A stretch of DNA of 32,000 nucleotides from Rhodocyclaceae bacterium (GCA_016704145.1 JADJAS010000007.1:48565-80564); one strand, 5' to 3'; shown: positions 2,035 through 31,281, counted from the stretch's first letter. Notes: generated by a model not told the origin, from the letters alone. Made by a program: numbers and translations.

Positions 2035-2048
2035 AAGAAGGAGACAAC

Positions 2049-5083: not shown

Positions 5084-5102
5084 GCGATATGGGGCATTCA
5101 CG

Positions 5103-8806: not shown

Positions 8807-8843
8807 GATGGTCGTGTTCCCGGTGTCGATGAATGGAAATGGT

Positions 8844-14445: not shown

Positions 14446-15864
14446 TCAGTCGATTCCGTATTCCGCCCAGCGGCCGCGTATCTTCGCCAGCATCGCCTCG
14501 TCCATGCGCGCCTCGACCGGCTTCTGCTTCCACTCGTAGGGAATGCAGGCGTCCATCAGGATGCGCGAGGTGGTGAGCTTGTCCGAGTTCGGGTCGAGCG
14601 CCGGATCGAGCGGGGTGGAGCGGCCACGCTTGATCAGCTCCGTGCCGCGCAACGGGTCGTAGCGGCATGACAGCGCCCAGAACACGCGCTGCAGGTCGTC
14701 GGCCATGATGTCCTCATCCACCGTGATGACACCCTTGATGCCGTAGGAGCCGGTGTTGCTGCCGATCACCGCGTCGGCGACCTGGCGCGAATGTCCCGGG
14801 TAGGACTGCTTGAGCGAGACGACGGCCCAGAAACGGCCGGCCGACTCGGGCAGCACGCAGACCGACTGCACGCCGGGGATCTTCATCTTCTCCAGTTCGG
14901 TCCACAGCGTCGCCGTGCGGGTGAAGGCGAGCAGCATGTGCACGTCGGTCACCGGGCGACCCTGGCCGGTGGCCCACAGCACGGAGTTGTTGCGGTGAAG
15001 GATCTGCTTCACCTCCAGCGCCGGCTTGAGGATCGGCTTGTGCAGTTCGTCGGTGTAGTAGCCGGTGTATTCGGCAAAGGGGCCTTCCTGGCGGAAGTTG
15101 TTCGGGTCGATCTCGCCTTCCAGCACGATCTCGGCGCCGGCCGGGACCGGCAGGCCGGTCAGCGGCGCCATCAGGAATTCGGCCGGCTGGCCGCGCACCG
15201 TGCCGGTGATGTCGAAGTCGTTGGCGCCCTTGTGCATCAGCGTGCCGGCCATGAAGATCAGCGGGTCGCAACCGATCACCGCGGCGGCCGGCATCTTCTT
15301 GCCCATCTTGGCGTACTTCTTCATGATCCGCTCACCACGCTTGCCCGGCAGAATCTGCACGCCGCAGGTCTTGTCGTCGAGCATCTGCATCCGGTAGGTG
15401 CCAAGATTGGTCTCGCCGGTCTCGGGGTCGCGCAGCACGACGAATACCATGGTGCCGATGTAACGACCGCCGTCGAGCGGAAAGAATTTCGGCACCGGGA
15501 ACATATTGAGGTCGACCTTGTCGCCGGCAAGGATGTTCTCCAGCACCGGGCCGTCCTTGACCTCCTTCGCCTTGATCAGTCCTTCGGAAGTGATGGTCTT
15601 CTTCATCCAGGCCTGGGCCGACTCGCACATCGACAGGTGGTGCGGTAGACCGAGCATGATGGCCAGGCGCTTGGTGGTGGCAAAGGCACCGGTGAACACC
15701 GGCGTGTCGTAGCCACTGACTTTCTCGAACAGCAACGCCGGGCCCTTGCGCTCCTCGGTCAACTTGGAGACATGCGATATCTCGAGGTTCCAGTCGACTT
15801 CTGTCGTGATCCGCCTCAGCTCGTTGGCCTCGTCACACTGATTGATGAAATAACGCAAATCCAT
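14446..15864 (-). CDS. ppcB: phenylphosphate carboxylase UbiD-like large subunit (about 53 kDa)
   Basis: 472-aa UbiD-family ORF (EGPFAEYTGYY). SD GAAGGAG lies before ATG 15864, 20 nt after the ppsC stop. Confidence 0.8.
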   Translation of the reverse strand: MDLRYFINQCDEANELRRITTEVDWNLEISHVSKLTEERKGPALLFEKVSGYDTPVFTGAFATTKRLAIMLGLPHHLSMCESAQAWMKKTITSEGLIKAKEVKDGPVLENILAGDKVDLNMFPVPKFFPLDGGRYIGTMVFVVLRDPETGETNLGTYRMQMLDDKTCGVQILPGKRGERIMKKYAKMGKKMPAAAVIGCDPLIFMAGTLMHKGANDFDITGTVRGQPAEFLMAPLTGLPVPAGAEIVLEGEIDPNNFRQEGPFAEYTGYYTDELHKPILKPALEVKQILHRNNSVLWATGQGRPVTDVHMLLAFTRTATLWTELEKMKIPGVQSVCVLPESAGRFWAVVSLKQSYPGHSRQVADAVIGSNTGSYGIKGVITVDEDIMADDLQRVFWALSCRYDPLRGTELIKRGRSTPLDPALDPNSDKLTTSRILMDACIPYEWKQKPVEARMDEAMLAKIRGRWAEYGID

Positions 15865-15884: not shown

Positions 15885-16583
15885 TTAGTGCTGTGTGTTG
15901 TCCGTCGTCGCCATCGGTCTCGTGGCCTGGACCGATTCGATCACCTGAAAGCCAGCTCGCTCGATCGCCGCCACGACCTGCCCGGTATCGTCACTGTGAA
16001 ACCGGATCACCACGCGCTTGAACGGATGTGTTCGCGGATTGACATCAGTCGGTTTGCCAATGGGATAGATCGCCTGCAGTTCGGCGCCGGCGGCTTCGAC
16101 GATGTCGGCAATCCGTCCGATCGTGCCGGGCTTGACATCCATCGGCGCCAAGGTGACACCGCTGCGTTTTTCCCAGGCGCTCAGGAAGTGGGCCGCCAGG
16201 GCGAACATCTCGTTCGCCGAGATGATGCCGACGACCCGGCCATCCTCCATCACTGGCAACTGGGCGATGCCATGTTCAATCCCCACTTCCAGGCAGTGCT
16301 CCATGGTGTCGGACGCCTGGATGGTGACCGGATTGCGCACCATCAGGTCCTTGACCTTGACGCGCGTCGAGAAGTAGTTCTGTTCGTCGGCATCCTGCGT
16401 TCGCAGGACATAGTGCGCGGCACGCAGACAAATCGCCCGCGTGATCAGTCCGCGCAGCCGGCCATCATCCACCACCGGCAGCCCGTGCAGATTGTTGTCC
16501 GTGATGATTTGTTTCGCCTCGTGCACCAGGGTGTCGCTGCCGACTACGATGGGGTTCCGTTGCATCCAGTTGCGTACCAGCAC
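15885..16583 (-). CDS. ppsC: phenylphosphate synthase stimulating subunit (CBS-pair plus ACT-like domain)
   Basis: 232 aa (about 24 kDa). Two CBS-like repeats (MQRNPIVVGSDT...GLPVVDDGRLRGLIT and MVRNPVTIQASD...QLPVMEDGRVVGIIS). GTG start at 16583 is preceded by AAGGGAGAA. Confidence 0.8.
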   Translation of the reverse strand: MLVRNWMQRNPIVVGSDTLVHEAKQIITDNNLHGLPVVDDGRLRGLITRAICLRAAHYVLRTQDADEQNYFSTRVKVKDLMVRNPVTIQASDTMEHCLEVGIEHGIAQLPVMEDGRVVGIISANEMFALAAHFLSAWEKRSGVTLAPMDVKPGTIGRIADIVEAAGAELQAIYPIGKPTDVNPRTHPFKRVVIRFHSDDTGQVVAAIERAGFQVIESVQATRPMATTDNTQH

Positions 16584-16595
16584 CGTCTTCTCCCT

Positions 16596-17711
16596 TCACA
16601 TGAGACGCTTGCCCGCCAGCAGGCTGGACACGATGTAATCCATCGCGGAAGCGGTCGCCGTGACCGTCGCCGCTGGCTGACGGTTGCTCCAGATCGTCTC
16701 GGGGCGTGCCTGGAGGATGTAGATGTTGCCGCCCGCCGGCAGCGCCTTGTCAACGGCCCACTCGATGTCCATCGGCCGGCCATAGTGCTTCTCGATTTTC
16801 TTGGCCATCCAGGCGAGCTCGGTAATTTCGTCGTCGATCAGGCACTGTATCGATTGCCGCTCGAAGGGCACTTCCGTCGCCACCGACTTCTGGACCCGGG
16901 GGTCGACCGTGTAACACATCAGTTTGGTGGAAATGGTCCGCTCCAGGATGTCCAGCGTCACCTTGTTCACCACGAAATGATCGGGCGTCACCTCACCCGA
17001 GACCACCGACTCGCCGAATCCGAAGTTGGCGTCGATGACGATCACCGAGCGATCGCCGGTCGCCGGATGCAAAGTGAACATCACGCCCGCCGCATAGGCA
17101 TTAGCCATCTTCTGCACGCCGACGCTGATCGCCACCTGATCGTGGGGGAAACCCATCTTCGAGCGATACGCAATCGCTCGCGCCGTGTAAAGACTGGAGA
17201 TGCATCGACGCACATGATGAATCACGTCGTCGAAGCCACGAATCCAAAGATAGGTGTCCTGCTGCCCGGCGAAACTGGCGCCCGGGAGGTCCTCGGCCGT
17301 GGCGCTCGAACGGATCGCCACCGGCACCGAGGCCTGGCAGCAGCGTACCGAAAGTTTGCGATAGGCCTCGCCGATCAGATCCTCCAGTTCGATCGACATC
17401 GGTCGCGACTCGATCATGTCCCTGATGGCGGCCGACGACTTCTCCAGGCGGTCGAGATTGTCGTGATCGAGCCCCTGCAACAGTCCGGCAATCTCGGACT
17501 GAATCCCCGCCGCGCGCATGAATTCAGCGAAACCCGCGGTGGTCAAGGCGAAGCCCGGCGGAACCCTCGCGCCCGAACTGATCAGTTCGCCCAGCGAGGC
17601 GCACTTGCCGCCAACGAGCGAAATCGAGTCCTTGGTGCATTCCTCGAACCAGCTGAGCAAGGGAATTTTCGTCGCCGCTTCGCCAGGCTTTGCGGCCAAG
17701 ACGGTAGTCAT
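16596..17711 (-). CDS. ppsB: phenylphosphate synthase beta subunit (PEP synthase N-terminal ATP-grasp-like)
   Basis: 371 aa (about 40 kDa). The GGKCASLGELISSGARVPPGFALT signature matches the PEP/pyruvate-binding N-domain of PEP synthase/PPDK. SD ACGGAGA lies before ATG 17711. Confidence 0.85.
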   Translation of the reverse strand: MTTVLAAKPGEAATKIPLLSWFEECTKDSISLVGGKCASLGELISSGARVPPGFALTTAGFAEFMRAAGIQSEIAGLLQGLDHDNLDRLEKSSAAIRDMIESRPMSIELEDLIGEAYRKLSVRCCQASVPVAIRSSATAEDLPGASFAGQQDTYLWIRGFDDVIHHVRRCISSLYTARAIAYRSKMGFPHDQVAISVGVQKMANAYAAGVMFTLHPATGDRSVIVIDANFGFGESVVSGEVTPDHFVVNKVTLDILERTISTKLMCYTVDPRVQKSVATEVPFERQSIQCLIDDEITELAWMAKKIEKHYGRPMDIEWAVDKALPAGGNIYILQARPETIWSNRQPAATVTATASAMDYIVSSLLAGKRLM

Positions 17712-17734: not shown

Positions 17735-19570
17735 TCAGCGAACGATCGTGATGTGTCCGGACGAACCGTCCACACGCAGCGACATGCCGGACTTGATCAC
17801 CTTGGTCGCGTACCCGGTGCCGACCACCGCCGGCATGCCGTACTCACGGCACACAATGGCCGCGTGGCTCATGACGCCACCGACATCGGTGATACAGGCC
17901 TTGATCTTGGCGAATGCCGGAGCCCACGACGGCGACGTGGTTGGCGCAACGAGAATCTCGTCCTCCATCAGATCGCGAATTTCCTCGGCGCCGAAGCACA
18001 CCCGGGCCTTGCCCTCGACAATTCCCGGACTGGCGGCAAATCCCTTCATCTCGGTGATGCTGTCGGGGTCGCCGACATCCTGCACCGACGCCCAATCCGA
18101 CAGCGACTTGTTGGTGACACCCCATAGGACGATGGTGAAAGGTTCCTGGATGACTTCGGGAGCCACGCCGATGGCGGGAGGCGCCCGCCATTCGCGAAAC
18201 TTCTGCATCACACCCTTGCGCCACTCGATCTCGGTTGGCCACGTCTTGGTGCCCCGCGGTTTTACGCCAGTGGCCCAAGCCGTCACGATGTCCCACAGTG
18301 CCTGCTTGATTTCATCGCGCCGCAGGTACCAGATATCCTCGACATCGTCGAGAATGCCATGTTCCTTCATGACCGCGGCCACCTGCCGGATCTTGTTCCA
18401 GAAAACCGAATGGAACCAGTGCTCGACGTAGAAAAGATGGTTCTCGACGTAGGGAAAGACAGTCTTCGCGCAGCCAAGCAGTTCATCGAACTGTTGTCGG
18501 TCGGCCTCGTTGGCGATCAGTTCGCGATACTCGGCGGTGATGCGGTCGCGCTCGGCGCGGACTTGCTCCATGGGCCGGTCGATATTGGCGCCAGAACGAA
18601 TCTTGTTGATGTAGGTCTGGATCCCAGAAAGGGGAATGCCCAGATTGTCGTTCCAACTCCGATCCGTATGGAACCACCCGGTACCGGACGAGATATTGAA
18701 CCAAGGGTAACGCGCCTTCTCGAACGCCGCCAGCCATTCGGCGCCGCCAGGCGATCTGGCGACGGCCACCTTGACATCCTCCCATTCCCGATGCTCGGTA
18801 ACCGCTCGGTCGACTCCAAGCAGGATGGCCTTCTTGGCCAGCCCCTTGAGTTCGTCATCTGGCCTATACATGATGACATCGATGCCCGATATCATCTGCG
18901 TCACGCGCTGGAGCGGAATGCTCGGGAAAAGTTTCTGGGCAAAGTCCATGAAAAACACGTACGCGGCATAGCCCAGGTTGAGAAACTCGAAGTGGTACTG
19001 CCAGCACTTGATGCCCAGGTTGATCAGGTCGTCATAGTTCTTGATCAGGTGGTAGCCTCGCGACTCGCCGACGCCATCGGTGACGATGCTCAAGTCCTCG
19101 ACCTCGGGCAGACGGGGAATCTCCAGCGCTTCGAGCTCGGCGATGGTTGCCTCCATCTTGACCTTCCACTTGGCCTCGAGGTCATCCCAGTTCTTGTAGT
19201 AGTAACCCGCCCGCTCCATGAAGTTGGGTACACGCGCGCCAATCTCCTCGGGGTCGCGCACGGGCACGGGTGAAATGTAGACATAGCCGTTGATGATCCG
19301 GTGGTCGACCCCTCGCACCGGCGGAACTTGAAAGATGCGGTTGTTGAACTGAGACAAGGCGAGATACCACGCCTCGTCCCATATCGTGTCGAATGGATAC
19401 AGTGGCTCGGGATAATGCAATCCGTCGTAGAACCAGAACGTCTCCTTTTCGTAGCGGTTGCGCTCGGCGTCATCGGTGACAAACTGATACTGGTAGGGGT
19501 ACATGCGCTCCCATCCCTCGGTACCGGGAATGGTCTTCGCCTTGACGTCATGCGGATTGGGGAATTGCAT
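17735..19570 (-). CDS. ppsA: phenylphosphate synthase alpha subunit (PEP-utilising enzyme with phosphohistidine mobile domain)
   Basis: 611 aa (about 70 kDa) from ATG 19570 (MQFPNPHDVK), which is preceded by AGGAGGAGG. The C-terminal TDVGGVMSHAAIVCREYGMPAVVG is the phosphohistidine swivel-domain motif. The track start at 19621 lacks an SD. Confidence 0.85.
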   Translation of the reverse strand: MQFPNPHDVKAKTIPGTEGWERMYPYQYQFVTDDAERNRYEKETFWFYDGLHYPEPLYPFDTIWDEAWYLALSQFNNRIFQVPPVRGVDHRIINGYVYISPVPVRDPEEIGARVPNFMERAGYYYKNWDDLEAKWKVKMEATIAELEALEIPRLPEVEDLSIVTDGVGESRGYHLIKNYDDLINLGIKCWQYHFEFLNLGYAAYVFFMDFAQKLFPSIPLQRVTQMISGIDVIMYRPDDELKGLAKKAILLGVDRAVTEHREWEDVKVAVARSPGGAEWLAAFEKARYPWFNISSGTGWFHTDRSWNDNLGIPLSGIQTYINKIRSGANIDRPMEQVRAERDRITAEYRELIANEADRQQFDELLGCAKTVFPYVENHLFYVEHWFHSVFWNKIRQVAAVMKEHGILDDVEDIWYLRRDEIKQALWDIVTAWATGVKPRGTKTWPTEIEWRKGVMQKFREWRAPPAIGVAPEVIQEPFTIVLWGVTNKSLSDWASVQDVGDPDSITEMKGFAASPGIVEGKARVCFGAEEIRDLMEDEILVAPTTSPSWAPAFAKIKACITDVGGVMSHAAIVCREYGMPAVVGTGYATKVIKSGMSLRVDGSSGHITIVR

Positions 19571-19649
19571 CGTCTGCCTCCTCCTGGAGAACGTCGTTCG
19601 TCCGGGCCGATGAACGAACACTGGGTTGACTTTCCTGTCCTACCAACCA

Positions 19650-19664
19650 GCAAAGCCCATGCCA
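19650..19664 (-). promoter_or_regulatory. sigma54 (-24/-12) promoter of the pps/ppc operon
   Basis: The minus strand reads TGGCATGGGCTTTGC (GG-N10-GC spacing; consensus TGGCAC-N5-TTGC). It lies about 80 nt upstream of ppsA ATG 19570, and a sigma54 activator gene is divergent. Confidence 0.7.
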
Positions 19665-19833
19665 TGTCTCGTGCTGTGGCGCAACATGGGCGAACCCGGG
19701 CGAGCCCACCCGATACTGGTCAATCTTGACCATCAGACGATAGCCATCGGCGTGCACACGCAGCAACGTTGCTCGGAGTGTCGCGTTGCCACCAATGGGA
19801 CGATCGGGCGTGGCGGAAAAACTCGATTGTTGT

Positions 19834-19875
19834 ATTGATCAACTTTCCCGCGCCGGCGGCCATGAATTGATCAAC
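19834..19875. promoter_or_regulatory. two copies of ATTGATCAAC (palindromic core TTGATCAA) 32 bp apart; candidate enhancer-binding-protein UAS
   Basis: Exact 10-mers at 19834-19843 and 19866-19875. They lie 170 and 202 bp upstream of the -24 element, in the divergent pps / regulator intergenic region. Confidence 0.5.
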
Positions 19876-19944
19876 GGAGCAAGCGATGATCGAGCAACGG
19901 CTGACGGCAACGGAAAGCTCGGACGAAAATTGCTCGACCATGGC

Positions 19945-19973
19945 TTGACTTTGTAAGCCCCAGAAGTTATCAA
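19945..19973 (+). promoter_or_regulatory. candidate sigma70 promoter of the activator gene
   Basis: TTGACT (19945-19950), a 17-nt spacer, then TATCAA (19968-19973), about 30 nt before ATG 20004. Confidence 0.35.
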
Positions 19974-20003
19974 TCCACCTTTTCCAAGCAAGGCACGAAC
20001 GCC

Positions 20004-21758
20004 ATGGCGAAGGCTGGCGAGATCAGAACGGCGCCCCGCGAAGCGACGCGGTGGAAGAGCGAGGGTCTACGCGGGCGCTTGCGTTTCGGTGCGGAAAGCG
20101 GCCAGATCTGGCTTGACGAGCACCGAATGCTTCTCGTGCATGCCGAGGCGCAAGCTCTGCTGCGCAAGGAGCTCATCGATTCGCTGGGCATGGAGCGCGC
20201 TCGCGGTCTACTCACACGCATGGGCTTCGCTTCCGGGATGCGCGATGCGCAAATCGCTCGGGAGCGATTCGCCGATGCTAGCGACATGGATGCGTTCATG
20301 ACCGGCCCCCAACTGCATACGCTTGAAGGCATCGTTAACGTGACGCCGATCAAGGTCGAACTCGACCGGATGGCGGGGCATTTCTATGGTGAGTTTCTAT
20401 GGGAGGACTCGTGGGAAGGCCAATGGCACCGGCATTACTACGGCATCCATTCCGAGCCTGTCTGCTGGACGCAGATTGGCTATGCCTGCGGGTATACCTC
20501 CGCGTTCATGGGTCGCACGATCCTCTACAAGGAAGTCGAGTGCACCGGCATGGGCAGCAACAATTGCCGCATCGTGGGCAAGCCCATCGAGGAATGGCCG
20601 GATGCGGCGGAACATGCCAAATATTTCAGCCCAGACTCGATTGCCGAACAGCTGATTGATCTCCAGACGGAGGTAGTCCAGCTACGCTCAACCATTGGTG
20701 ACCGCCATCAGCACAGCGACGATGTGAGAGGCATTTCTCCTGGGTTCTTGGCCGCCTTCGAACTGCTGAAACAGGCGGCCGGCTGTAGCATCACCGTCTT
20801 GTTGCTTGGCGAGACAGGCGTTGGCAAGGAAGTATTCGCCCGAAGCCTGCACGACATGGGGCCCCGCCGCGACTCGCCGTTCGTCGCGGTAAATTGCGCG
20901 GCGATTCCGCATGACCTGGTCGAATCGGAACTCTTCGGCGTGGAGAAAGGCGCCTTCACGGGCGCGCAGCATACCCGCCCGGGCCGATTCGAACGTGCCA
21001 ACGGCGGCACCTTGTTTCTCGACGAAATAGGCGACCTACCCTTGGCCGCACAGGCAAAGTTGCTTCGCGTTCTTCAGGATGGCGAAGTGGAGCGGCTGGG
21101 TGATCAAAAGTTGCGCAAGATCAATGTTCGTCTCGTCGCCGCAACCAATGCCGGACTCCAAGGGCTCGTCAGGGAAGGACGATTTCGTTCCGACCTTTAC
21201 TACCGACTGAATGCCTATCAGGTCAAGATTCCGCCGCTACGCGAGCGCAAACAGGATATTCCGGTTCTAGCAAAGCACTTTCTGGCAAAGTACGCCGCCA
21301 TCAATGGGAAGAAACTTCGCGGCTTCACGGACAAGGCCAAGCGCGCCCTGCTTGCATATCGATGGCCCGGCAACATCCGCGAGTTGCAGAATATGGTGGA
21401 ACGCGGGGTGATACTGGCTCCCAACAGTGGTCAGGTAGAAGTCAACCACCTGTTTCTGTCCCACTGCGATGGCAGCGATCAACCGAGCGAATTCGAGTTC
21501 GGCCTCGCCAGTGATGGCGGCATCACCGGCACCCGCTGGGAAACGGGCGAGGATCTCTGTGACGCCGTTTTCAATGGCAGGATGACGCTCGACCAGGTGG
21601 AGGCGATGTTGCTGACCGCCGCCGTCGACAAGGCGCGTGGCAACTTGTCGGCGGCGGCGCGATTTCTTGGCATCACTCGAGCGCAACTCGCCTATCGGCT
21701 AAAACGGCTGCGGGCGGCCGAAGCCGAACTCGATGCGGAGATCGGTGTCTTCTCTTGA
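20004..21758 (+). CDS. sigma54-dependent transcriptional activator of the XylR/DmpR (phenol-responsive) family
   Basis: 584 aa. N-terminal XylR_N/V4R-type sensor (CWTQIGYACGYTSAFMGRTILYKEVECTGMGSNNCRIVGKP). AAA+ core with GETGVGKE Walker A, the GAFTGA sigma54-contact loop and FLDEIGDL Walker B. C-terminal Fis-type HTH (GNLSAAARFLGITRAQLAYRLKR). Confidence 0.9.
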   Translation: MAKAGEIRTAPREATRWKSEGLRGRLRFGAESGQIWLDEHRMLLVHAEAQALLRKELIDSLGMERARGLLTRMGFASGMRDAQIARERFADASDMDAFMTGPQLHTLEGIVNVTPIKVELDRMAGHFYGEFLWEDSWEGQWHRHYYGIHSEPVCWTQIGYACGYTSAFMGRTILYKEVECTGMGSNNCRIVGKPIEEWPDAAEHAKYFSPDSIAEQLIDLQTEVVQLRSTIGDRHQHSDDVRGISPGFLAAFELLKQAAGCSITVLLLGETGVGKEVFARSLHDMGPRRDSPFVAVNCAAIPHDLVESELFGVEKGAFTGAQHTRPGRFERANGGTLFLDEIGDLPLAAQAKLLRVLQDGEVERLGDQKLRKINVRLVAATNAGLQGLVREGRFRSDLYYRLNAYQVKIPPLRERKQDIPVLAKHFLAKYAAINGKKLRGFTDKAKRALLAYRWPGNIRELQNMVERGVILAPNSGQVEVNHLFLSHCDGSDQPSEFEFGLASDGGITGTRWETGEDLCDAVFNGRMTLDQVEAMLLTAAVDKARGNLSAAARFLGITRAQLAYRLKRLRAAEAELDAEIGVFS

Positions 21759-22213
21759 CCAGCGCACTTCGCGAGCGCGTGCTCGAACAACTCGCGGATC
21801 ATCACGTCCTCTCCCTGGCCACGACGGGCCCGGAAGGGCCGTGGGCCGCCGCGGTATTCTATGCGCATGATGGTTTGTCCCTCTACTTTCTCTCCTCTCC
21901 GACCAGCCGCCACGCCCTAAACATCGGCGCTGGCACGGAAGTGGCCGCCACGATCCAACACGACTACGATGACTGGCCAGGCATTCGCGGGCTACAGTTG
22001 CAAGGCCGCGCCGAACCCGTTGCCGCGCACGATGAGGCCGGGGTACGACAGCGATACGCCGCGCGTTTCCCCGTTATCGGGTTGTCCGCGAGGGCCCCGG
22101 CCGCGATCGTCCGCGCCCTGGATCGCATCCGCTGGTATGTCCTTTGTCCTCGCGCCATCTGGTTAATAGACAACAGGCGCGGATTTGCTCACCGCGAGCG
22201 ACTCGATGTGTAG
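21755..22213 (+). CDS. pyridoxamine 5'-phosphate oxidase (PNPOx) family FMN-binding protein
   Basis: 152 aa. ERVLEQLADHHVLSLATTGPEGPWAAAVFYAHDGLSLYFLSSPTSRH, then the GLQLQGRAEPV pattern typical of PNPOx-like split barrels. The TTG start overlaps the activator stop (TCTTGACC), and there is no in-frame ATG near the 5' end. Confidence 0.6.
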   Translation: MTSALRERVLEQLADHHVLSLATTGPEGPWAAAVFYAHDGLSLYFLSSPTSRHALNIGAGTEVAATIQHDYDDWPGIRGLQLQGRAEPVAAHDEAGVRQRYAARFPVIGLSARAPAAIVRALDRIRWYVLCPRAIWLIDNRRGFAHRERLDV

Positions 22214-22274
22214 GCGGCTTGCTTCATTCCCCCTCTTGCTTGGTTGGTGAAATTCCGGATTCTTGACGGGGAAA

Positions 22275-22320
22275 TTTGATCAAATCGTCAATCATTGGTC
22301 TTCCAATGATTGACGATTTG
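22275..22320. promoter_or_regulatory. TTTGATCAAA palindrome fused to a perfect 18-bp inverted repeat (4-nt spacer); candidate UAS/operator
   Basis: CAAATCGTCAATCATTGG (22281-22298), TCTT, then CCAATGATTGACGATTTG (22303-22320) are exact reverse complements. TTGATCAAATC spans 22276-22286. The element lies about 130-170 bp upstream of the sigma54 promoter at 22448. Confidence 0.55.
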
Positions 22321-22447
22321 TCGCCACTTCCTTCCAGTGTATCCAGAATCGCCGCCGAGGCTGTTCGAGCCCCACGCGCTCTTCGCCATCGACGCGTACT
22401 CGGCCTTTCGGTCGAGTGATCACAATATCGCACCGCACAACGACACC

Positions 22448-22462
22448 TGGCACGAGCCTTGC
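22448..22462 (+). promoter_or_regulatory. sigma54 (-24/-12) promoter, perfect consensus
   Basis: TGGCACGAGCCTTGC matches TGGCAC-N5-TTGC exactly. It lies on the + strand about 213 nt upstream of the BNR lipoprotein ATG at 22675. Confidence 0.7.
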
Positions 22463-22674
22463 GGACAGTGCCCGGTGAGTTGACGCGAATTCTCGGCCAA
22501 TACAACCGCCAGACCAACCACGATATCCATTCAAAGCCAAGCATGATCAAGGCAATGCGCCACCGCCAGCCTCATCCATCAACGGAGACTTCAATGGCGC
22601 CATGCCCCCAACTTTGTGTCGACGAGAACGTCGCAATTAGCGACATTGCCGCTTCTCGACACAACGGGGTGACG

Positions 22675-23612
22675 ATGAAGTTCATCATGCTCTGCCTGAC
22701 TGGTTTACTGCTGACTGGTTGCCGTGGTGTAACGGACCCATCGCAAGTGGCGATGGGGGGTGGGGAAGCGCTGAAGCGCTATGACGTGATACAGGCGCTG
22801 GGGTGGAATGGTGAGGTGATGGTGGGTGGGAGTCAGGCGGGGGCGGTGGTGGTATCGGCGGATGGTGGGAAGAGCTGGCGGCGGGAGAATTTGGTGGGGG
22901 CCAGTGTGATGGGTCTGGCGGCATGTCCGGACGGCGGGTTTGTCGGGATTGACTTCAACCACAAGGTTTGGAGTGGCGATCGGCAAGGTCAGGCATGGCG
23001 GAGCGCCGAGTTGGACAAGCCGCGGGTACCGCTGGCGGTCACCTGTGATGGTCGGGGCCGGTGGTGGGTGGTGGGGTCTGGGGCCAGGATAGCGGTCAGT
23101 GTTGACCGGGGAGTCAGCTGGACGGTGACTGACCTGCAAGAAGACGTTCAATTCACCACGGGCCCAGTTTGTTGATGACCGGCACGGTTTTGTTCTGGGC
23201 GAATTTGGTTACGTCGTGGTCACCGACGATGGCGGCGAGAGCTGGCGCAAGCTGAGCCAGATTCCGGGCGAGTTTACCCCTACGCCGCCCTCTTTCTCGA
23301 CCGCAACGAAGGCTTCGCCAGCGGCATCGCCGGGCAAATGCTGCATACCGTCGATGGGGGCAAGACCTGGAGCCGGATGGCCAACCCCAGCGGTGCGGCG
23401 CTCTACCGGCTGTTTCTGCACGAAGGCCGGCCTTATGGCGTTGGCGCCGGCGGTGTCATTGCCCGGCTGGAAGAAGGCCAATGGCGGTCGGTGCCGTACC
23501 CGGATGCCGTGCCGGCGTTTCTGGGTTCGGCGGCCAGCGTCGCGGGAGGCATCGTCATCGTGGGCCGGGCGGCTTGCGGGTCGTGGCGATCACGCCAGGA
23601 GCGGGCGCATGA
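22675..23612 (+). pseudogene. BNR-repeat / Ycf48-like beta-propeller lipoprotein, disrupted by three frameshifts
   Basis: Lipoprotein signal MKFIMLCLTGLLLTGC. BNR motifs SADGGKSW, SVDRGVSW, TDDGGESW and TVDGGKTW are spread over frames 1, 2, 1 and 3. Frame 1 stops at 23173-23178. The frame-3 end (GGLRVVAITPGAGA) stops at a TGA that overlaps the RND ATG as ATGA. Confidence 0.6.
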
Positions 23613-25891
23613 GTGGCGGTGGGCTGCGCCAGCGCATCACCCATGGCCTGCACGTTGGCGAGGAATGGCTGTTTGCCAATCCCAAGATCGTGCTTGGGCT
23701 GATTCTAGCCGCCACCCTGGCCTGGAGTCTGTTTCTGCCCAAGCTGCGGGTGTATTCCGACTTTGCCGACCTGCTGCCGCAACAGCATGCCTACATCACA
23801 GAGTACAACCGGATCAAGGAAGGCTTTGGCGGCGCCAACCAGATCGTCATGGCCATTGAAGTCGAGCAAGGCACCATTTTTAACGATGCCACGCTCAAGC
23901 TGGTGCATGAAGCCACCCAGGGGATGGACAACCTGCCCAGCGTCAACCACAACCTGGTGGCCAGCCTGACGCACCGGACCGCGCGCAAGGTCTATCTCAG
24001 CGCCGAAGGCAACTTTATGTCCGAGCCGTACTACGACCCGCTGAAGGGCAACCGGACGGCGGCCGAGTTCGAGCGGATGAAGAAGGACGTCATTGCCAAC
24101 CCCACCATCTACGGTCTTCTGGTCTCGCCCGATCTCAAGGCTGCGCTGATCAAGGCCCAGCTCAACGAAGCCGACCTCGACTACGTCAAGACCTTCGCCG
24201 AACTCCAGAAAGTGCGGGAAAGCCTGGCGCGGCCCGGGCACAAGATCCACGTCACCGGCAATCCCGTGCTCACCGGCTGGGTCTATACCTACCTCAACCA
24301 GATTCTGGGCATTCTGGCCTGCTCCCTTCCTCATTGCCGCCCGCGCCACCTCCCACGGCGTCCAGCTGGTGGCGCGCTACTACGAAGAACTGGCCAAGAC
24401 CCACCACGGCGCCAAGGCGGCGCGCAACGCCCTCGATGCCCTGTTCCGGCCGGGCAGTCTGGCCATCATCGTGGACGCGGTCGGCATAGCCGTGCTCATG
24501 CTGGGTGCCGCCCCCTTCAACCACAAGCTGGGTCTGGCGGCCGGCTTCTGGGGCTTCTCGGTCATCTTCACCGTGCACTTCATGGTACCGCTGGCGCTGA
24601 CCATCCTCAGCGCAGCCGCGGGAGATGGAGAACAAGAACGAAGGCGTGCGCAACCTGCTGGGCCGGGCCATGGCCATGACCGGCGGCACCGACGGTGGCG
24701 CGCGGGCCATCCTGGCCGTGGCGGCGCTGTGCGCCATTGGCGGCGGCTGGTTCATTGCCCGGGTGCAGCTGGGCGAATCCGAGGCGGGCAGCCCGCTGCT
24801 GCACCGGCACCACGACTACAACCGATCGACCCAGGCCATCAACACCCTGTTCCCTGGCTCCGAGGAATTGCACGTGGTGGCGCGTACCGACGAGAAGGGC
24901 GGCATCAAGCGGCCGGACGTCATGGCCGCCATCGAGCGCTTTCAGGCGCACATGCTGGCCGATCCCGGTCTGGGCGGCACCAAGGCCATTCCCGGGGTGG
25001 TGCGGGTGGTGGAACCGGCTGACCCACAACGACGACCCGCGCTGGATGCAGCTGCAGGACAATGCCGAGGAAGTGGGCGGCCTGATGTTTGCCTACATGG
25101 CCAGCAGTCCGATACCGGGGGCCCTGAAGGAATTCATCAGTCCCGACGAGAACGAAGCCAACATGGTGTTCTTCTACAAGGACCACCAGGCCGACACCAT
25201 CAACCGGGTGGTGGCCCTGGCCGAGGCGGGCATCAAGCAGATCGAGCGGGACGTGCCCGGGCTGCACATTGAACTGGGGGGCGGCATCATCGGCGTCACG
25301 GCGGCGGCCAACCAGGCCCTGCACCGGGACCACATGATCATCATCCCGGCGGTGATGATCCTGGCCTTTGCCCTGGTCATGCTGTACTACCAGTCGTGGC
25401 ACGCCGGCTGGCTGATGGTGTTGCCCATGCTGTTCGCCACGGTGATGACCTATGCCTACATGGGCGCCGCCCACATCGGCATCAACGTCAATACCGTGCC
25501 GGTGATCGCCGTCGGGGTGGGGGTGGGCATCGACTATGCCGTCTATTTCATGGACCGCATCCGCGAGGAAATGGCGGCCACCCGGAACATTCACCGGGCG
25601 GTGGTCAATGCGGTGGCCACCACGGGTTACGCCGTCTCGTTCACCGCGGCGACGCTGATTGCCGGGGTGATCATGTGGATATTTCTGTCGGACCTGCGGT
25701 TCCAGTCGGACGCGGCCATCCTGCTGTCGTTCATGCTGGTCGTCAATGCCATTGCCGCCATGCTGATCGTGCCGGCCTGGTGCGTCGTGTTCAAGCCGCA
25801 CTTCGTGGTGGCCACGCATTACGACGCGGATGGCGTGCTGGAGGAAGACGCGGCGAACGGTGGCGGTCTGGCGGGGGTGAAGGCGGGGTAA
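23609..25891 (+). pseudogene. RND-superfamily (MMPL/HpnN-like) inner-membrane transporter, disrupted by three frame changes and an apparent internal deletion
   Basis: The family-typical sequence reads in frame 2 (23609 to about 24318), frame 3 (to about 24610; PFLIAARATSHGVQLVARYYEE), frame 1 (to about 25015) and frame 2 (to TAA 25891; GVGVGIDYAVYFMDRIREE). The first half lacks about 55 aa (TM2-TM3) compared with the internally homologous second half. Confidence 0.6.
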
Positions 25892-25913
25892 ACCTTAGAG
25901 GAGGAGGACAGCG

Positions 25914-28091
25914 ATGAAGATCGAGCGGATGAACAGGAAGCGGATGGTGGTGGCGACGGCGCTGGCGCTGGCGGGACTGGGCTCGCTACCGGCGCGGGCG
26001 AACAACTTGCCGTCGCTGGGCGGCGATGTCGAGCCCTGGCGGGTCGATGTCTATTACGAGAACGACACGCGCTTCCGGGGCAAGGACAAGAGCGGGGACC
26101 GGGTCGGGCTGTCGAAGTTCAGGAACACCTTGCAGGTCGAGGCCGACAAGAAGGTGGGTGACGGCTGGGCGGTGCGGGGCATCCTGCGCGGCACCTGGGA
26201 CGGCGTCTATCGGCTCAACGAGGACGAATACGGCAAGGACGCCGGCAGCAAGACCGCGGCCGACGTGCGGATTCCCAACACGGCCGGGCCGGTGGCCCAG
26301 TCGGTGGGGCTGTTCGGGCCCCCCTCGCCCGTACATGTTCATTACGGTGCCACCGTGCCATTCGGCGGTGGGGTGGGCTTTACCGTGGTGGATGTCATCC
26401 AGGCCGGCGCGGGGCTGCCCAACTTGGGCGGACCGGGCGGCGGGCCGGGCGTGAACAAGTTCATCGATCCCAACTATGGCAACCTGGCGGCGCCGCCGGC
26501 CGTCTACGGCTCGGGCGCCGGCCTGCAACTCCTGGGTGAGCGCTGGAACCGGACCGGATCGGGCGTGGCCTTTGCCGTACCGGTGCGGCCGTGCGACAAG
26601 GACAAGCGCGGCTGCCGCGACTTTGGCGGCTATGGCGACAAGAAGCTCTCCGAACTGGAGGCGCCCGAGTTCAACGACCGGGCCGACTTCATTCGCGAAC
26701 TCTATGCCAAGAAGACCTTCGACCTGGCCGACGGCGGCAACTTCTTCCTCAAGCTGGGCCGGCAGCAGGTGGTCTGGGGCCGCACCGACCTGTTCCGCGT
26801 GCTCGACGTCATCAACCCGGTGGACTACTCGCGCAACAACATCTACGACGAGTTGCAGGACATCCGCATTCCGATGTGGATCGCCCAGGGCGAATGGCGG
26901 ATGGGTGGCTCGGGCAGCATGCAGGAGCGCAACCTGCAGGTGGTGTGGAACTTCGACAAGTTCCGGCCGAACAACCTGGGCCAGTGCGGCAGCCCCAACG
27001 TCATTCTCGACGCTGGCTGCTTCTTCCGCGGCATGGCCAATCTCTGGGACCACGGCGGCACGGTGGCCAACTTCGCCGGCTTCAGCGCCCCGGGCACCCC
27101 GGCGCCGGTCGATGGCGTCTGGTTCGCCACCAACTTCGGGCCGAACCAGATCGGCATCCGCAAGGTGCACCTGCCCGAATGGAGCCTGGCCAACACCCAA
27201 CTGGGGATGAAGTTCGAAGGCGTCACCCAGGGCGGCCTCAACTTCTCGGTCAATGCCCTGACCTATCGTTCGCAACTGCCGAGCCTGCGCTCGATCAACC
27301 AGGTGGCGATCAACCCCTTCACCGGCGCCCACGGCAACACGTCGCCGTTCTCCGGACCGGCCCAGGGCATTCCGACCACCAACCTGATCGCCTTCGACGT
27401 CTATTTCCCGCGCATCAACCTGATCGGCGGCTCCATGGACTTCCAGTCCGAGGCGCTGGGCGCAGCGTTCCGGCTCGAGGGCGCCCTGACCAAGGGCGAG
27501 GAATTCGCCAACACCGCCCGGCCGCGGCTCTACTCCGAGAACAAGGTGTTCCGTTCGGTGATCGGCGTGGACCGGCCGACCTTCATTCCCTTCATCAACC
27601 CGAACCGTACCACCCTGATCTCGGCGCAATTGTTCTACCAGCACATCTTCGACCACGAATCGAGGCGCATGCCGGGGGGCCAGGTCGGCATGCCCGACTG
27701 GAAGGACAACTATATCGGCACCCTCCTGATCAAGGGCTTCGTCATGAACGACCGGGTCAGCCCGACCCTGATCCTGGCCCGCGACTTCAGGGCCCGGGCC
27801 TGGGCGATCGCCCCCTCGGTGGAGTGGAACGTCACCGACGATCTCAAACTGACCTTCGGCGCCAACGTCAAGAACCGTGACGATCAGAGCCGCTGGGAGT
27901 TCGACGACTGCCGCTCCTGCAACCCCTACGCGCCCTACACCATGTACACCAACGGCGCCACCACCCAGGGCTTCACCCCGGGCTCGTTCGGCCTGTCCGG
28001 CATCGAGCCGCTCGGCCGCTTCCGCGCCGGCCCCATCGGCGCCGCCTGGAAGGAAAACGAGCTCTACGTCACCCTCAAGTACAAGTTCTGA
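25914..28091 (+). CDS. DUF1302-family outer-membrane beta-barrel protein
   Basis: 725 aa. SD GGAGGAGGA before ATG 25914. Signal peptide MVVATALALAGLGSLPARA. LKLGRQQVVWGRTDLFRVLDVINPVD is characteristic of DUF1302. The C-terminal LKYKF carries the terminal aromatic residue typical of OMPs. Confidence 0.75.
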   Translation: MKIERMNRKRMVVATALALAGLGSLPARANNLPSLGGDVEPWRVDVYYENDTRFRGKDKSGDRVGLSKFRNTLQVEADKKVGDGWAVRGILRGTWDGVYRLNEDEYGKDAGSKTAADVRIPNTAGPVAQSVGLFGPPSPVHVHYGATVPFGGGVGFTVVDVIQAGAGLPNLGGPGGGPGVNKFIDPNYGNLAAPPAVYGSGAGLQLLGERWNRTGSGVAFAVPVRPCDKDKRGCRDFGGYGDKKLSELEAPEFNDRADFIRELYAKKTFDLADGGNFFLKLGRQQVVWGRTDLFRVLDVINPVDYSRNNIYDELQDIRIPMWIAQGEWRMGGSGSMQERNLQVVWNFDKFRPNNLGQCGSPNVILDAGCFFRGMANLWDHGGTVANFAGFSAPGTPAPVDGVWFATNFGPNQIGIRKVHLPEWSLANTQLGMKFEGVTQGGLNFSVNALTYRSQLPSLRSINQVAINPFTGAHGNTSPFSGPAQGIPTTNLIAFDVYFPRINLIGGSMDFQSEALGAAFRLEGALTKGEEFANTARPRLYSENKVFRSVIGVDRPTFIPFINPNRTTLISAQLFYQHIFDHESRRMPGGQVGMPDWKDNYIGTLLIKGFVMNDRVSPTLILARDFRARAWAIAPSVEWNVTDDLKLTFGANVKNRDDQSRWEFDDCRSCNPYAPYTMYTNGATTQGFTPGSFGLSGIEPLGRFRAGPIGAAWKENELYVTLKYKF

Positions 28092-28109
28092 TCCAGGAGA
28101 TCCATCCCC

Positions 28110-29423
28110 ATGAAACTCAAACCCCTCACCCTCGCCTCCACCCTCGCCCTGGCTTCCACTATCACCTCCCTCGCCTCCGCCGCCACCGAGACGGAACTGG
28201 ACAATGCCTTCCATCCGTACAAGAAGGGTTTCCCGGCTTTCCCGGGACTCAATCCCGGTCTGGTCATCAACAAGGCCAATGTCGACCAGTTCAAGGACGC
28301 CCTCGATCCGGCCAACTACCAACTGGTCAAGGATGGCTGGTACGAAGTCACCGCGGTTCCGACCATCGACTTCCCCAACGCCAAGGGCTATGTTGAAGCA
28401 ACCAAGGCCCATTCGGGCAGCGTCAAGCTCGGCGGCAAGAACGGTGAAATCAGCGGTTACGTTGCCGGCCGGCCCTTCCCCGAGGAGCCGGATCTCAAGG
28501 ATCCGCGCGCCGGCGAGAAACTCGCCTGGAACTTCAAGTACGGCATCAACTGGGGTGACAACGCCGCCATCTATCCTTTCTACTGGCGCTATCGCAACGC
28601 CACCACCGGTCAGGTCGAACGGACCATCAAGTTCAATTTCCACTTCCTCAATTTCAAGCACCGCAACGACCATCCACCGATTCCGGAGGTGACGCCCAAT
28701 CCGTCGCAATTGTTCCGGGGTATCTACGTGCAGGTACTGGAGCCGCAGGACCTGAAGAACACCCAGCTGCTGATCCAGCGTTACGAGGACGACCTCAAGC
28801 TCGATGACGCCTACCTGTACCTGGGCTTCCAGCGCCGGGTACGCCGCCTGGCTACGGGGCAGACCACTGACGCCTTTCTCGGCTCGGACGTCATGATCGA
28901 GGATTTCGAGGGCTACAACGGTCGCATCTCGGACATGAAGTGGACCTTCCTCGGCACCAAGAACATTCTGATGCCCTACTACCGGGCCACCGACGTCAAG
29001 CGTACCGACGAGTTCAAGGATCCGGACGGCTACAAGTTCATCGATGTCGGCGGCAAGGGCAACTGTATGCCCACCATCGGCTGGCAGTTGCGCAAGGTGC
29101 ACATCCTGCAGGCCGAACCGGTGAATCCGAATCACCCGATCAGCAAGCGAGTCATCTACCTCGATGCCCAGGTCTTCGGCGCCTCGCGCACCTTGATCTA
29201 CGACCGCAAGGGCGAGCTTTGGAAGAGTTGGATGATCGGCAAGGCGCATCCCGACTTCCATCTGCCCATTAACAAGGGCACCGGCATCGCCCTCGACGAC
29301 TCCTTTTCCATGATCGACGTCCAGGCCAAGCATTGCACCACCGGCCAGTTCAAGGGGCAGGTCGATCCCAAACTCAATCCGCCCTCACTCTTCCAGGTGC
29401 AAAACCTCCGCAGCGGCGACTAG
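28110..29423 (+). CDS. DUF1329-family periplasmic (LolA-like fold) protein
   Basis: 437 aa. Signal peptide MKLKPLTLASTLALASTITSLASA. GRPFPEEPDLKDPRAGEKLAWNFKYGINWGD matches the DUF1329 N-terminal signature as I recall it. It lies 18 nt after the DUF1302 gene. Confidence 0.7.
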   Translation: MKLKPLTLASTLALASTITSLASAATETELDNAFHPYKKGFPAFPGLNPGLVINKANVDQFKDALDPANYQLVKDGWYEVTAVPTIDFPNAKGYVEATKAHSGSVKLGGKNGEISGYVAGRPFPEEPDLKDPRAGEKLAWNFKYGINWGDNAAIYPFYWRYRNATTGQVERTIKFNFHFLNFKHRNDHPPIPEVTPNPSQLFRGIYVQVLEPQDLKNTQLLIQRYEDDLKLDDAYLYLGFQRRVRRLATGQTTDAFLGSDVMIEDFEGYNGRISDMKWTFLGTKNILMPYYRATDVKRTDEFKDPDGYKFIDVGGKGNCMPTIGWQLRKVHILQAEPVNPNHPISKRVIYLDAQVFGASRTLIYDRKGELWKSWMIGKAHPDFHLPINKGTGIALDDSFSMIDVQAKHCTTGQFKGQVDPKLNPPSLFQVQNLRSGD

Positions 29424-29478
29424 CACAACCATTCTTCTGATCTTCTCCGACGCGTCTTCCAAAAAGCTGACGCTTCTC

Positions 29479-29507
29479 CGGGGGCCCTTGGGCCCCCGCT
29501 CTTTTTC
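29479..29507 (+). terminator. Rho-independent terminator after the DUF1329 gene
   Basis: The GC stem CGGGGGCC / GGCCCCCG surrounds CTTG and is followed by CTCTTTTTC (T-run 29502-29506). It lies 56 nt after the stop at 29423. Confidence 0.7.
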
Positions 29508-29615
29508 GCCACCCGGAGACCACGACCGGACCAGCCATGGCCTGTCGGACACCCTGCTAGAATTATTATCCGATCAATACCGTCGCCACCCGGCATCCAT
29601 CGAAGGCCACTCCTC

Positions 29616-30773
29616 ATGTCAGGCAACACTTTTGGCAGGCTGTATTGCGTGACATCTTTCGGGGAATCGCATGGACCGGCAATCGGCTGTGTCGTCGATG
29701 GTTGCCCGCCAGGGCTGGAGCTTTCCGAACCCGACATCCAGCGCGATCTTGACCGCCGAAAACCCGGGACCTCGCGTCACGTGACGCAGCGACGCGAACC
29801 CGACCGGGTGGAAATCCTTTCCGGAGTCTTCGAGGGCAAAACCACCGGGACACCGATCGCGTTGCTGATTCGCAACGAGGACCAGCGCAGCCGTGATTAT
29901 CGGGAAATCGCCGAGACCTTCCGTCCCGGTCACGCCGATTACACCTATTGGCAAAAGTACGGCATCCGCGACCACCGTGGTGGCGGTCGAGCCTCCGCGC
30001 GCGAAACCGCCGTGCGCGTCGCGGCCGGTGCCATCGCCCGCCAGTGGCTGTCGAAAAGATTCGGCATCGAGGTCCGCGGCCACATGACGGCGCTGGGCGA
30101 TCTCGAAATCCCTTTTCGCTCCTGGTCGCACGTGCACGACAATCCATTCTTTGCGGCTGAACCAGATGTTGTTCCCGAGCTTGAGGCGTGCATGGATCGC
30201 CTGAGGCGAGAGGGAGATTCAATCGGCGCCGGGGTACGGGTAGTCGCCAGTGGCGTGCCAGTCGGCTGGGGCGAACCCGTCTATGACCGTCTCGACGCCG
30301 ACATTGCCTCGGCCATGATGGGCATCAACGCGGTCAAGGGTGTTGAGATCGGCGCTGGCTTTGCCAGTATCCGGCAGCGTGGTAGCCAGCACGCCGACGA
30401 ATTGTCACCCTCCGGCTTTCTCGGCAATCATGCCGGCGGTATTCTTGGTGGCATTTCCACGGGACAGGACATCGAGGTTGGTCTTGCGGTCAAGCCGACA
30501 TCCAGCATACGCATCCCGCGGCGGACCATCGACAAGGCGGGTCATGCCGCGCTGATATCGACCGAAGGTCGTCATGACCCTTGTGTCGGCATTCGGGCCG
30601 TGCCGGTTGCCGAAGCCATGATGCTGATCGTGCTCATGGACCACGCGCTGCGCCATCGCGCGCAGTGCGCCGACGTCCGATGCCCCACCCCGAAGATTGC
30701 GCCGGGCACCGGCGGTCCTGCCGCCGGCCCGATGGAAACCCGGCACGATCCCGAACCCGAGGAAGATGCCTGA
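29616..30773 (+). CDS. aroC: chorismate synthase
   Basis: 385 aa. [47 protein letters not shown] and [18 protein letters not shown] are classical AroC signatures. Confidence 0.95.
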
Positions 30774-30790
30774 ATCGCACGATCGAAGGA

Positions 30791-31252
30791 TCAACGCTTC
30801 TCGGGAAATATTTTTTTCAGCAGTTTCACCAAGGTTTGCCGCTCCGTCGGACTCAGCGTGGCGACCAGCCGTTTCTCGTGCTCGCCGACCCTCTGCTTGA
30901 TCCTGCGCAGCAAGGCCGCGCCGTCACTCGTCAGGCGCAAGGCGTTGGATCGCCTGTCATTGGGTGCGGCGCGGCGCTCGACCAGACTTCGGCGCTCGAG
31001 ATTGTCGATGACCGACACCACGGTCGAGCGGTCGAGATGTGTCGCCCGCGCCAGTTCGCTCTGCTTTAGATCGGGGTTGGCTTCGATGATCACCAAGACA
31101 CCAAAAAGACCCGGTGTCATGTCCAGATCACCGATGCTCTCGGAAAAATCCTTGAACATCGCGATCTGAGCCATGCGCAGTTGGAAACCGACCAGTTCTG
31201 GCAGTAACCCCAGCGAAATGCTGGTCGGCGAAACCTTCTTCATGGCAGACAA
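30791..31252 (-). CDS. MarR-family transcriptional regulator
   Basis: Winged-helix core QSELARATHLDRSTVVSVIDNLERRSLVERRAAPNDRRSNALRLTSDG. The track start at 31252 is TTG. ATG 31243 (MKKVSPTS) is an equally plausible start. Confidence 0.85.
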   Translation of the reverse strand: MSAMKKVSPTSISLGLLPELVGFQLRMAQIAMFKDFSESIGDLDMTPGLFGVLVIIEANPDLKQSELARATHLDRSTVVSVIDNLERRSLVERRAAPNDRRSNALRLTSDGAALLRRIKQRVGEHEKRLVATLSPTERQTLVKLLKKIFPEKR

Positions 31253-31281
31253 GTGCGCGTCACTCCCGTCGATACCAGCTC

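Follow-up and report, generated by a model that had tools for sequence, protein, structure and literature searches.

The 32,000-nucleotide stretch of DNA analysed here (Rhodocyclaceae bacterium, GCA_016704145.1 JADJAS010000007.1:48565-80564; hereafter the window) carries a four-gene envelope module, encoding BNR, RND, DUF1302 and DUF1329 proteins, behind a PNPOx-like gene and the gene for a candidate sigma54-dependent activator, and the activator gene is in turn divergent from the phenol-catabolic pps operon. This raises the question of what controls the module, and whether it is expressed together with pps. An earlier reading of the window alone (the original prediction) had proposed that the same phenol-responsive activator drives both operons. 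In our analysis, positions 22236-22474 probably constitute the complete sigma54-dependent control region of the BNR-RND-DUF1302-DUF1329 operon, with a PheR-type activator that is shared with pps. The region is very likely a functional enhancer of the XylR/DmpR type combined with a sigma54 promoter, and the adjacent PheR-type activator is the most likely driver of the BNR promoter. We infer binding and phenol dependence for the predicted sites, and likewise the identity of the activator, the start of transcription and the origin of a palindrome that overlaps one of the sites. The elements that the argument builds on, including two upstream activator sites (UAS), are as follows.

22236-22251, plus strand: UAS-A, the distal, weak predicted activator site (TTGCTTGGTTGGTGAA on the plus strand, TTCACCAACCAAGCAA on the minus strand), assigned by weight matrix, position and conservation
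22276-22291, plus strand: UAS-B, the proximal, strong predicted activator site TTGATCAAATCGTCAA, a XylR/DmpR-type 16-bp inverted repeat, assigned by weight matrix
22448-22462, plus strand: sigma54 -24/-12 promoter core TGGCACGAGCCTTGC, with its GG/GC doublets spaced as TGGCAC-N5-TTGC, an exact match
20004-21758, plus strand: candidate activator, a PheR/PdeR-type sigma54 enhancer-binding protein (Pfam XylR_N, V4R, Sigma54_activat, AAA_lid_14 and HTH_8; GAFTGA)
19664-19650, minus strand: sigma54 promoter of the pps operon, TGGCATGGGCTTTGC, one mismatch to the consensus, the partner promoter of the proposed regulon
19827-19882, minus strand: pps enhancer, with the proximal site at 19827-19842 (TTGATCAATACAACAA on the minus strand) and the distal site within 19859-19882

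The promoter core, the activator sites and their conservation

When both strands of the window were searched for exact TGGCAC-N5-TTGC, a single match was found, at 22448-22462 (0.07 expected), in agreement with the original prediction that TGGCACGAGCCTTGC matches the sigma54 consensus exactly; the base 3' of its TTGC is a G and deviates from the A or T of the consensus. With one mismatch allowed, the window holds seven matches compared to 2.9 expected. No sigma70 promoter was predicted over 21700-22800. Based on the usual spacing from the -24 GG and -12 GC doublets, transcription would start near 22474.

The activator sites were scored with a weight matrix trained on the enhancers of ppsA promoters in 50 other loci (consensus TTCACCAAATGATCAA), from which the window and its two nearest relatives were left out. 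Across both strands of the whole 32-kb window the matrix scored highest at UAS-B (23.1 bits), followed by the pps sites at 17.9 and 16.5 bits, with everything else at or below 11 bits, and scores of at least 23 bits were reached in one of 300 simulated windows of the same first-order composition. An exact-string search for TTGATCAA, which had been reported to occur twice by pps and once here, gave exactly those three places (19835, 19867 and 22276), where 0.36 occurrences were expected and none of 100 shuffles reached three. The XylR-type motif TTGATCAAATC described upstream of the sigma54 core was likewise present, at 22276-22286. The XylR consensus that had been given for comparison, TTGANCAAATC, found no match as a literal string in the literature searched, and the motif was instead checked on the TOL plasmid pWW0, whose Pu promoter does carry TTGATCAAATCGACAG upstream of TGGCATGGCGGTTGC. 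UAS-B starts 172 bp and UAS-A 212 bp upstream of TGGCAC, which places the two sites exactly 40 bp apart. As UAS-A scores weakly (8.1 bits, with the corresponding sites in the related loci L001 and L002 below 7 bits), it is supported by where it lies and by its conservation; in the alignment of the two enhancers it pairs with the distal pps site TTGCTCCGTTGATCAA.

The pps operon provides the natural comparison. One correction to the original prediction concerns its placement: the operon lies on the minus strand and has a sigma54 promoter of its own, at 19664-19650, with one mismatch to the consensus. The divergent intergenic region holds the two further TTGATCAA copies, roughly 170-220 bp upstream of this pps promoter. 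The proximal site there lies 178 bp before the -24 element and scores 16.5 bits; for the distal one the distance is 210-218 bp and the score 10.2-17.9 bits. We gathered 80 loci encoding relatives of the activator and anchored their ppsA-activator intergenic regions on the sigma54 motif. The order of ppsA and a divergent activator, followed by PNPOx, is kept in most of these loci, and with a strict pattern the sigma54 motif was found before ppsA in 32 of 53 intergenic regions. The enhancer of this family (pps-activator intergenic regions, L005-L073) consists of two 16-bp sites with the consensus TTCAYCAAATGATCAA, an inverted repeat of the form TTGATCA-N2-TGATCAA, spaced 40-41 bp apart, the proximal site mostly starting 176-180 bp before TGGCA. 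The modes at pps promoters are 177-180 bp for the proximal and 218-221 bp for the distal site, with minor classes of the proximal distance near 166, 189-190 and 201 bp; these distance classes suggest helical phasing. The two enhancers of the window, at BNR and at pps, can be aligned over approximately 65 nt, beyond the 16-mers themselves; the flanks that they share are GGGAAA ahead of the proximal site and CAATC behind it, and CTTGCT at the distal site.

A separate feature of the pps regions is a T-rich motif (e.g. ATTTTGCTGCA) found about 100 bp before TGGCA in many pps promoters (L017, L023, L024, L032, L068 and others), which might be the site of a bending protein. The pps region of the window carries GTTGCTGC at this place between enhancer and promoter.

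The junction between PNPOx and BNR is found in three lineages, represented by the window with the near-identical L081 and L086, by L001 with L088, and by L002; a broader search for this junction returned only these lineages. The window, L001 and L002, whose activators are approximately 90-91% identical to that of the window, were aligned three ways, with the following result for the enhancer and its surroundings.

22236-22251, plus strand: UAS-A, 15/16 columns invariant
22276-22291, plus strand: UAS-B, 14/16 columns invariant
22292-22298, unstranded: rest of the left arm of the palindrome, 7/7 columns invariant
22299-22302, unstranded: palindrome loop, 0/5 columns invariant
within 22303-22320, unstranded: inner part of the right arm, 7/9 columns invariant
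within 22303-22320, unstranded: outer part of the right arm, 2/9 columns invariant
between enhancer and promoter, unstranded: 119 bp, 21% invariant

In the promoter core 14 of 15 columns are invariant, and TGGCACGAG[C/G]CTTGCGGA is kept in L001, L002 and L088, compared to 21-32% invariant columns in the flanks. The intergenic DNA is thus largely decayed around surviving islands, namely both sites and the promoter core. In the relatives UAS-B is even nearer to the consensus (TTGATCAAATAATCAA at 23.9 bits and TTGATCAAATCATCAA at 25.8 bits), starting 177 bp from the promoter in L001 and 175 bp in L002. Among the 58 related loci with enough DNA behind PNPOx, a pair of UAS and sigma54 promoter was found at this place only in L001 and L002, and in both of them the BNR gene lies directly downstream. 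Since the pair is found only where BNR follows, the control region appears tied to the module and seems to have come with it.

How far the transcript extends ahead of the BNR protein depends on the start codon. The BNR reading frame is open from upstream of the promoter and offers in-frame starts at 22543, 22555, 22594 and 22675 (ATG) and at 22669 (GTG). The ATG at 22543 is kept in L001 and L002 and implies a leader of 69 nt, similar to the approximately 68 nt at pps; the gene call on L081 equates to a start at 22594, and the lipoprotein-type signal sequence of BNR starts at 22669/22675. The start codon is therefore ambiguous, and the leader may be 69, 120 or about 195-200 nt long. The leader of about 200 nt that had been described as unusually long is accordingly possible (195-200 nt) but hinges on an uncertain start, with 69 or 120 nt fitting as well, and the ATG then taken as the first (22675) is preceded by in-frame ATGs nearer the promoter, at 22543, 22555 and 22594. 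An Rfam scan of the leader assigned no family and gave one sub-threshold chance match (Hrs13, 18.6 bits compared to a gathering score of 52). Just 5' of the lipoprotein signal, a 41-nt block (22628-22668) is 66% invariant amid a background of 32%; the alignment of homologs suggests that it encodes the charged N-terminal part of the signal peptide.

The activator and the envelope module

The genes on either side of the control region were assigned by Pfam.

14446-15864, minus strand: phenylphosphate carboxylase-type UbiD gene
15885-16583, minus strand: ppsC
16596-17711, minus strand: ppsB
17735-19570, minus strand: ppsA
21755-22213, plus strand: PNPOx-like gene
approximately 22594-23612, plus strand: BNR/YCF48-like gene, the first behind the promoter, disrupted in the window
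approximately 23609-25891, plus strand: MMPL/HAE3-type RND gene, the second, disrupted in the window
25914-28091, plus strand: DUF1302 gene, intact (E 1.9e-44)
28110-29423, plus strand: DUF1329/LolA-like gene, intact (E 1.1e-74)

The only sigma54 activator that Pfam scans found in the window is the product of 20004-21758, which by synteny and identity would be an ortholog of the phenol sensor PheR/PdeR. A 457-amino-acid open reading frame on the minus strand (7499-8872) was considered as a second activator and turned out to encode an AMP-binding enzyme instead. In the proposed mechanism, the phenol-bound activator would occupy both sites, UAS-B (strong) and UAS-A (weak), 40 bp apart, oligomerise at these sites and loop to the closed complex of RNA polymerase and sigma54 at 22448-22462; it would then open the promoter with ATP, with transcription proceeding from near 22474. 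Acting likewise at the divergent promoter of pps, it would join the phenol-catabolic genes with the module, which is of the AmeABCD type discussed below, in one regulon. The claim of a common activator is supported by the top match of the matrix, the same architecture at both promoters, the likeness of the two enhancers over 65 nt and the conservation, all of which is support from sequence; at this level, co-regulation with pps is well supported in silico. The probable task of the module itself is to deal with substrates of a hydrophobic or phenolic kind at the envelope.

Several observations weigh against this assignment. The conservation is drawn from three independent lineages only, and UAS-A is weak enough for about six matches of its strength (8.1 bits) to be expected per random window. 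UAS-B starts 172 bp from the promoter, which compared to the 177-180 bp of the family mode is a shift of roughly half a helical turn, and between sites and promoter no match to the IHF consensus WATCAANNNNTTR within one mismatch was found, whether in this region, in the pps region or in the relatives L001 and L002. With BNR and RND disrupted, the promoter may drive a partly dead operon in this strain. Finally, as sites of the XylR family are alike among paralogs, the sequence alone cannot assign the activator.

A different account of the same elements is that promoter and enhancer are real but are served by another XylR/DmpR-family paralog with its gene elsewhere in the genome, for example an aerobic DmpR/AphR-type or an EtpR-like regulator, the control region having travelled with the module from an aerobic phenol/meta-cleavage operon. 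We consider this unlikely, although it draws on several facts. The nearest homologs of the module lie inside aerobic phenol-hydroxylase, catechol 2,3-dioxygenase or meta-cleavage operons (L082, 1-11311; L098, 2704-11305; L099, 1-13622), which suggests an aerobic phenol pathway as the source from which the anaerobic cluster acquired the module, and the module is absent from nearly all related anaerobic phenol loci. In addition, UAS-B fits the general family consensus better (23.1 bits) than do this lineage's own pps sites (16.5-17.9 bits), and the published AphR motif GCTTGATCATTTGATCATGC is of the same type (PMC6449761). On the other hand, the enhancer begins 22 bp past the stop codon of the activator-PNPOx gene pair, and its flanks GGGAAA, CTTGCT and CAATC are lineage-specific and common to the local pps enhancer. 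Moreover, no sigma54 promoter or UAS of the module's own was found in L082, L087 or L094, which gives no sign that such a region travels with the module, and the window holds no further sigma54 activator. The adjacent PheR-type activator stays the more likely candidate.

In L087 and L094, whose BNR genes are 87-89% identical relatives, BNR follows a different upstream gene after a short spacer with a G+C-rich hairpin (GGTTTCCTG...CAGGAAACC). As BNR stands there behind another gene and without a sigma54 promoter, the module appears to move between regulatory contexts. The activator gene shows a difference of its own between assemblies: L081 (coverage approximately 2.3x) lacks 42 nt inside the AAA+ domain (near 2722 in L081; 20941-20981 in the window). 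As the window activator matches the Pfam AAA+ domain end to end and L081 lacks the 42 nt, each assembly seems to have a defect of its own. Further away, on the plus strand at 487-6647, the window carries two FAD-linked oxidase genes, an aldehyde dehydrogenase gene and an AMP-binding ligase gene, a set that resembles p-cresol-type catabolic genes beside the phenol cluster.

The palindrome and the lesions in the operon

UAS-B overlaps one further element.

22281-22320, unstranded: perfect palindrome, with arms at 22281-22298 and 22303-22320 (18 nt each, 100% complementary) and a loop at 22299-22302 (4 nt)

The exact 18-bp inverted repeat with its 4-nt spacer was thus found as originally described. 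Its standing as a 40-bp element did not survive the comparison with relatives, where conservation covers the left arm but stops after the inner 8-9 bp of the right one. The left arm consists of the right part of UAS-B and the conserved TCATTGG (22292-22298), the parts that are kept are ATCATTGG (22291-22298) and CCAATGAT (22303-22310), and the right arm in relatives matches only as CCAATAAT. The outer right arm is strain-specific (two of nine columns invariant), and the relatives lack the long hairpin. In our reading, the right arm is a mirror copy of the left arm, made in this strain, that lengthened an ancestral inverted repeat of 8-9 bp with a variable loop, for which a template-switch event (quasi-palindrome correction) is a plausible origin. 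The right arm was also considered as a third full activator site, and the mirrored position 22310-22325 scored 3.0 bits. We infer that the palindrome is no separate device but largely a strain-specific by-product overlapping a real site.

It is distinctly unlikely that the palindrome acts mainly as an RNA or DNA hairpin, terminating or insulating read-through from the activator-PNPOx pair or pausing transcription. Such a role would fit its position 68 bp past the PNPOx stop codon, the very stable RNA predicted for the 18-bp stem (-32.3 kcal/mol, z -8.1, none of 200 shuffles folding as well) and the inner inverted repeat of 8-9 bp that is kept with a variable loop in three lineages. Against it, L001 and L002 form stems of just 5 bp with z near 0, and the bases that are conserved are those of UAS-B and its flank, for which a protein site is the better explanation. 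Termination in particular was rejected as the main role of the palindrome: the stem is A+T-rich and followed by GTCGCCACTTCC with no T-run, and terminator prediction on both strands gave none at the palindrome. The palindrome is thus not a canonical terminator, whereas the original prediction had named a palindrome acting only as a terminator for PNPOx among the outcomes that would speak against it. A hairpin role would in any case not exclude an enhancer role.

The inner palindrome, ATCATTGG-N4/5-CCAAT(G/A)AT, is kept in the three lineages with a fully variable loop and does not score as an activator site. It is a long shot that this repeat, which abuts UAS-B, serves a second regulator as its operator or acts by forming a structure, with the module under dual control and separable from pps despite the shared activator. 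If so, cruciform extrusion of the perfect 40-bp palindrome of this strain could take place over the activator site.

The state of the operon itself was judged against L081, which is 98-99.8% identical to the window over 18219-31349 and 100% identical in the intergenic control region. L081 encodes an intact BNR of 339 amino acids and an intact RND of 810 amino acids, and L086, an independent assembly, agrees. Relative to both, the window has three lesions in BNR (+C at 23163, -T at 23273 and -G at 23560) and three in RND (+G at 24610, +G at 25011 and, at 24322, a deletion of approximately 152 nt that takes out transmembrane segments). All six frame-breaking differences fall within 1.85 kb, across which indels outnumber substitutions, and the neighbouring genes compared with L081 are free of frame-breaking indels. 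The lesions could represent decay (pseudogenisation) or sequencing and assembly error.

That the control region is a relic, an idle promoter before a decayed module whose motifs persist for want of time to erode, is highly improbable: the clustered lesions, the intact BNR and RND in two near-identical assemblies and the RND gene that is also cut by an insertion sequence (IS) in L099 and truncated in L097 would fit, but L081, with an intact operon, has an identical control region (100%), which points to an element functional at the species level, DUF1302 and DUF1329 are still intact, and the excess of indels over substitutions also fits sequencing or assembly error.

In detail, RND is split by an IS3-family element in L099 (4139-7847) and reduced to a C-terminal fragment beside IS elements in L097 (3968-7930), with DUF1302 and DUF1329 intact in both; together with the window, these are three cases that lose only the BNR/RND half. 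Within DUF1329 of the window, a patch at 28310-28437 is strongly divergent from L081, with clustered compensating indels and a protein identity of 92% amid a region of approximately 99%, and looks like a recombination tract.

Comparison with known systems

The control region resembles the Pu promoter of the TOL plasmid pWW0, where two 16-bp sites of the TTGATCA-N2-TGATCAA type lie upstream of a TGGCA-N6-TTGC promoter, and the distal one, TTGATCAAATCGACAG, agrees in its first 12 bases with the window at 22276-22287. The activators also share a XylR_N-V4R-AAA+-HTH_8 domain set. Pu uses an IHF site, and none is recognisable in the window region. A further difference lies in the geometry: the sites of Pu are 31 bp apart, at 145 and 114 bp before TGGCAT, whereas those of the window are 40 bp apart, at 212 and 172 bp before TGGCAC. 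Effector and cargo genes differ as well. The Pu stretch used for this comparison matched pWW0 at 100% (NC_003350.1, 75529-75586), with TTGATCAAATCGACAG and TTGATGATTTGCTCAA 31 bp apart, starting 145 and 114 bp before TGGCATGGCGGTTGC.

A close counterpart of the pps half is PheR (formerly PdeR) with the pps-ppc genes of Aromatoleum aromaticum EbN1, a sigma54-dependent one-component phenol sensor that is divergent from the adjacent ppsA and whose deletion abolishes ppsA1 expression (PMC10715001). The Aromatoleum loci with the same synteny encode activators 70-72% identical to that of the window. Unlike in the window, no second PheR target promoter or envelope module is described for EbN1 (PMC10715001), and no module was found beside pheR in the Aromatoleum loci gathered.

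A precedent for the coupling of a catabolic cluster and an envelope module is found in the same strain. The regulatory logic of its EtpR system is the same as that proposed for the window, with EtpR being a paralogous regulator whose effector is p-ethylphenol or p-hydroxyacetophenone, not phenol. The 'efflux' cluster of that system, ebA326-ebA335, is presumably made of the same four gene families as the module of the window. The gene for EtpR, a sigma54 regulator of the XylR/DmpR type, lies between this cluster of approximately 6.5 kb and a catabolic one; both clusters carry sigma54 motifs, and both lose expression in an etpR deletion mutant (PMC4630880). Furthermore, genes of COG4447, COG1033, PF07044 and DUF1302 are predicted members of the AphR/AphS/AphT regulons in Betaproteobacteria, a context in which the EbN1 work is cited (PMC6449761). 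In both situations the same four gene families are predicted to be under regulators of aromatic catabolism; the two differ in that those regulons concern aerobic phenol (aph/dmp-type) clusters while the module of the window is on the anaerobic phenylphosphate pathway and has its own promoter. AphR itself is of the XylR/DmpR type, and for this family paired palindromes of 16-20 nt are described, with centres 29-42 nt apart and 100-200 nt upstream of the -12/-24 element (PMC6449761). When held against this distance rule, the sites of the window, at 172 and 212 bp, are in accordance with it.

With respect to the genes, the four adjacent reading frames correspond to an AmeABCD-type HAE3 RND module, i.e. 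DUF1302, DUF1329/LolA-like, BNR/COG4447 and MMPL/COG1033 RND. In Castellaniella defragrans, AmeABCD is induced by monoterpenes, a hydrophobic growth substrate, and its deletion lowers monoterpene tolerance (PMC6394551). The order ameA-B-C-D is DUF1302-DUF1329-BNR-RND, unlike the BNR-RND-DUF1302-DUF1329 of the window, which is also the order in L081, L082, L098 and L099; substrate class and regulation differ too, and BNR and RND are disrupted in the window. Likened by description, pipA and pipB of Thauera aromatica T1 belong to the same DUF1302 and DUF1329 families and respond to a phenolic inducer, being p-cresol-induced according to a PhD thesis as relayed in bioRxiv 10.1101/072470.

The link between the module and the metabolism of phenolic compounds, which the original prediction had put forward, is not new (PMC4630880, PMC6449761, PMC6394551, bioRxiv 10.1101/072470), and the finding raises no new question and upsets no expectation. 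For the biochemical role of such modules several proposals have been published, among them efflux of substrates or tolerance to them, the export of an envelope component, and an activity as esterase. For practical purposes, the analysis yields a usable rule for PheR-type regulation, TTCAYCAAATGATCAA twice, 40-41 bp apart, with the proximal site approximately 178 bp before the -24 element, and offers 22236-22474 as a compact candidate for a phenol-responsive promoter region. The window provides one more example of a design that had been documented before in related bacteria, and it adds a case from anaerobic phenol degradation by the phenylphosphate pathway to the XylR/DmpR-type coupling of aromatic catabolism and the DUF1302/DUF1329/BNR/HAE3-RND module.

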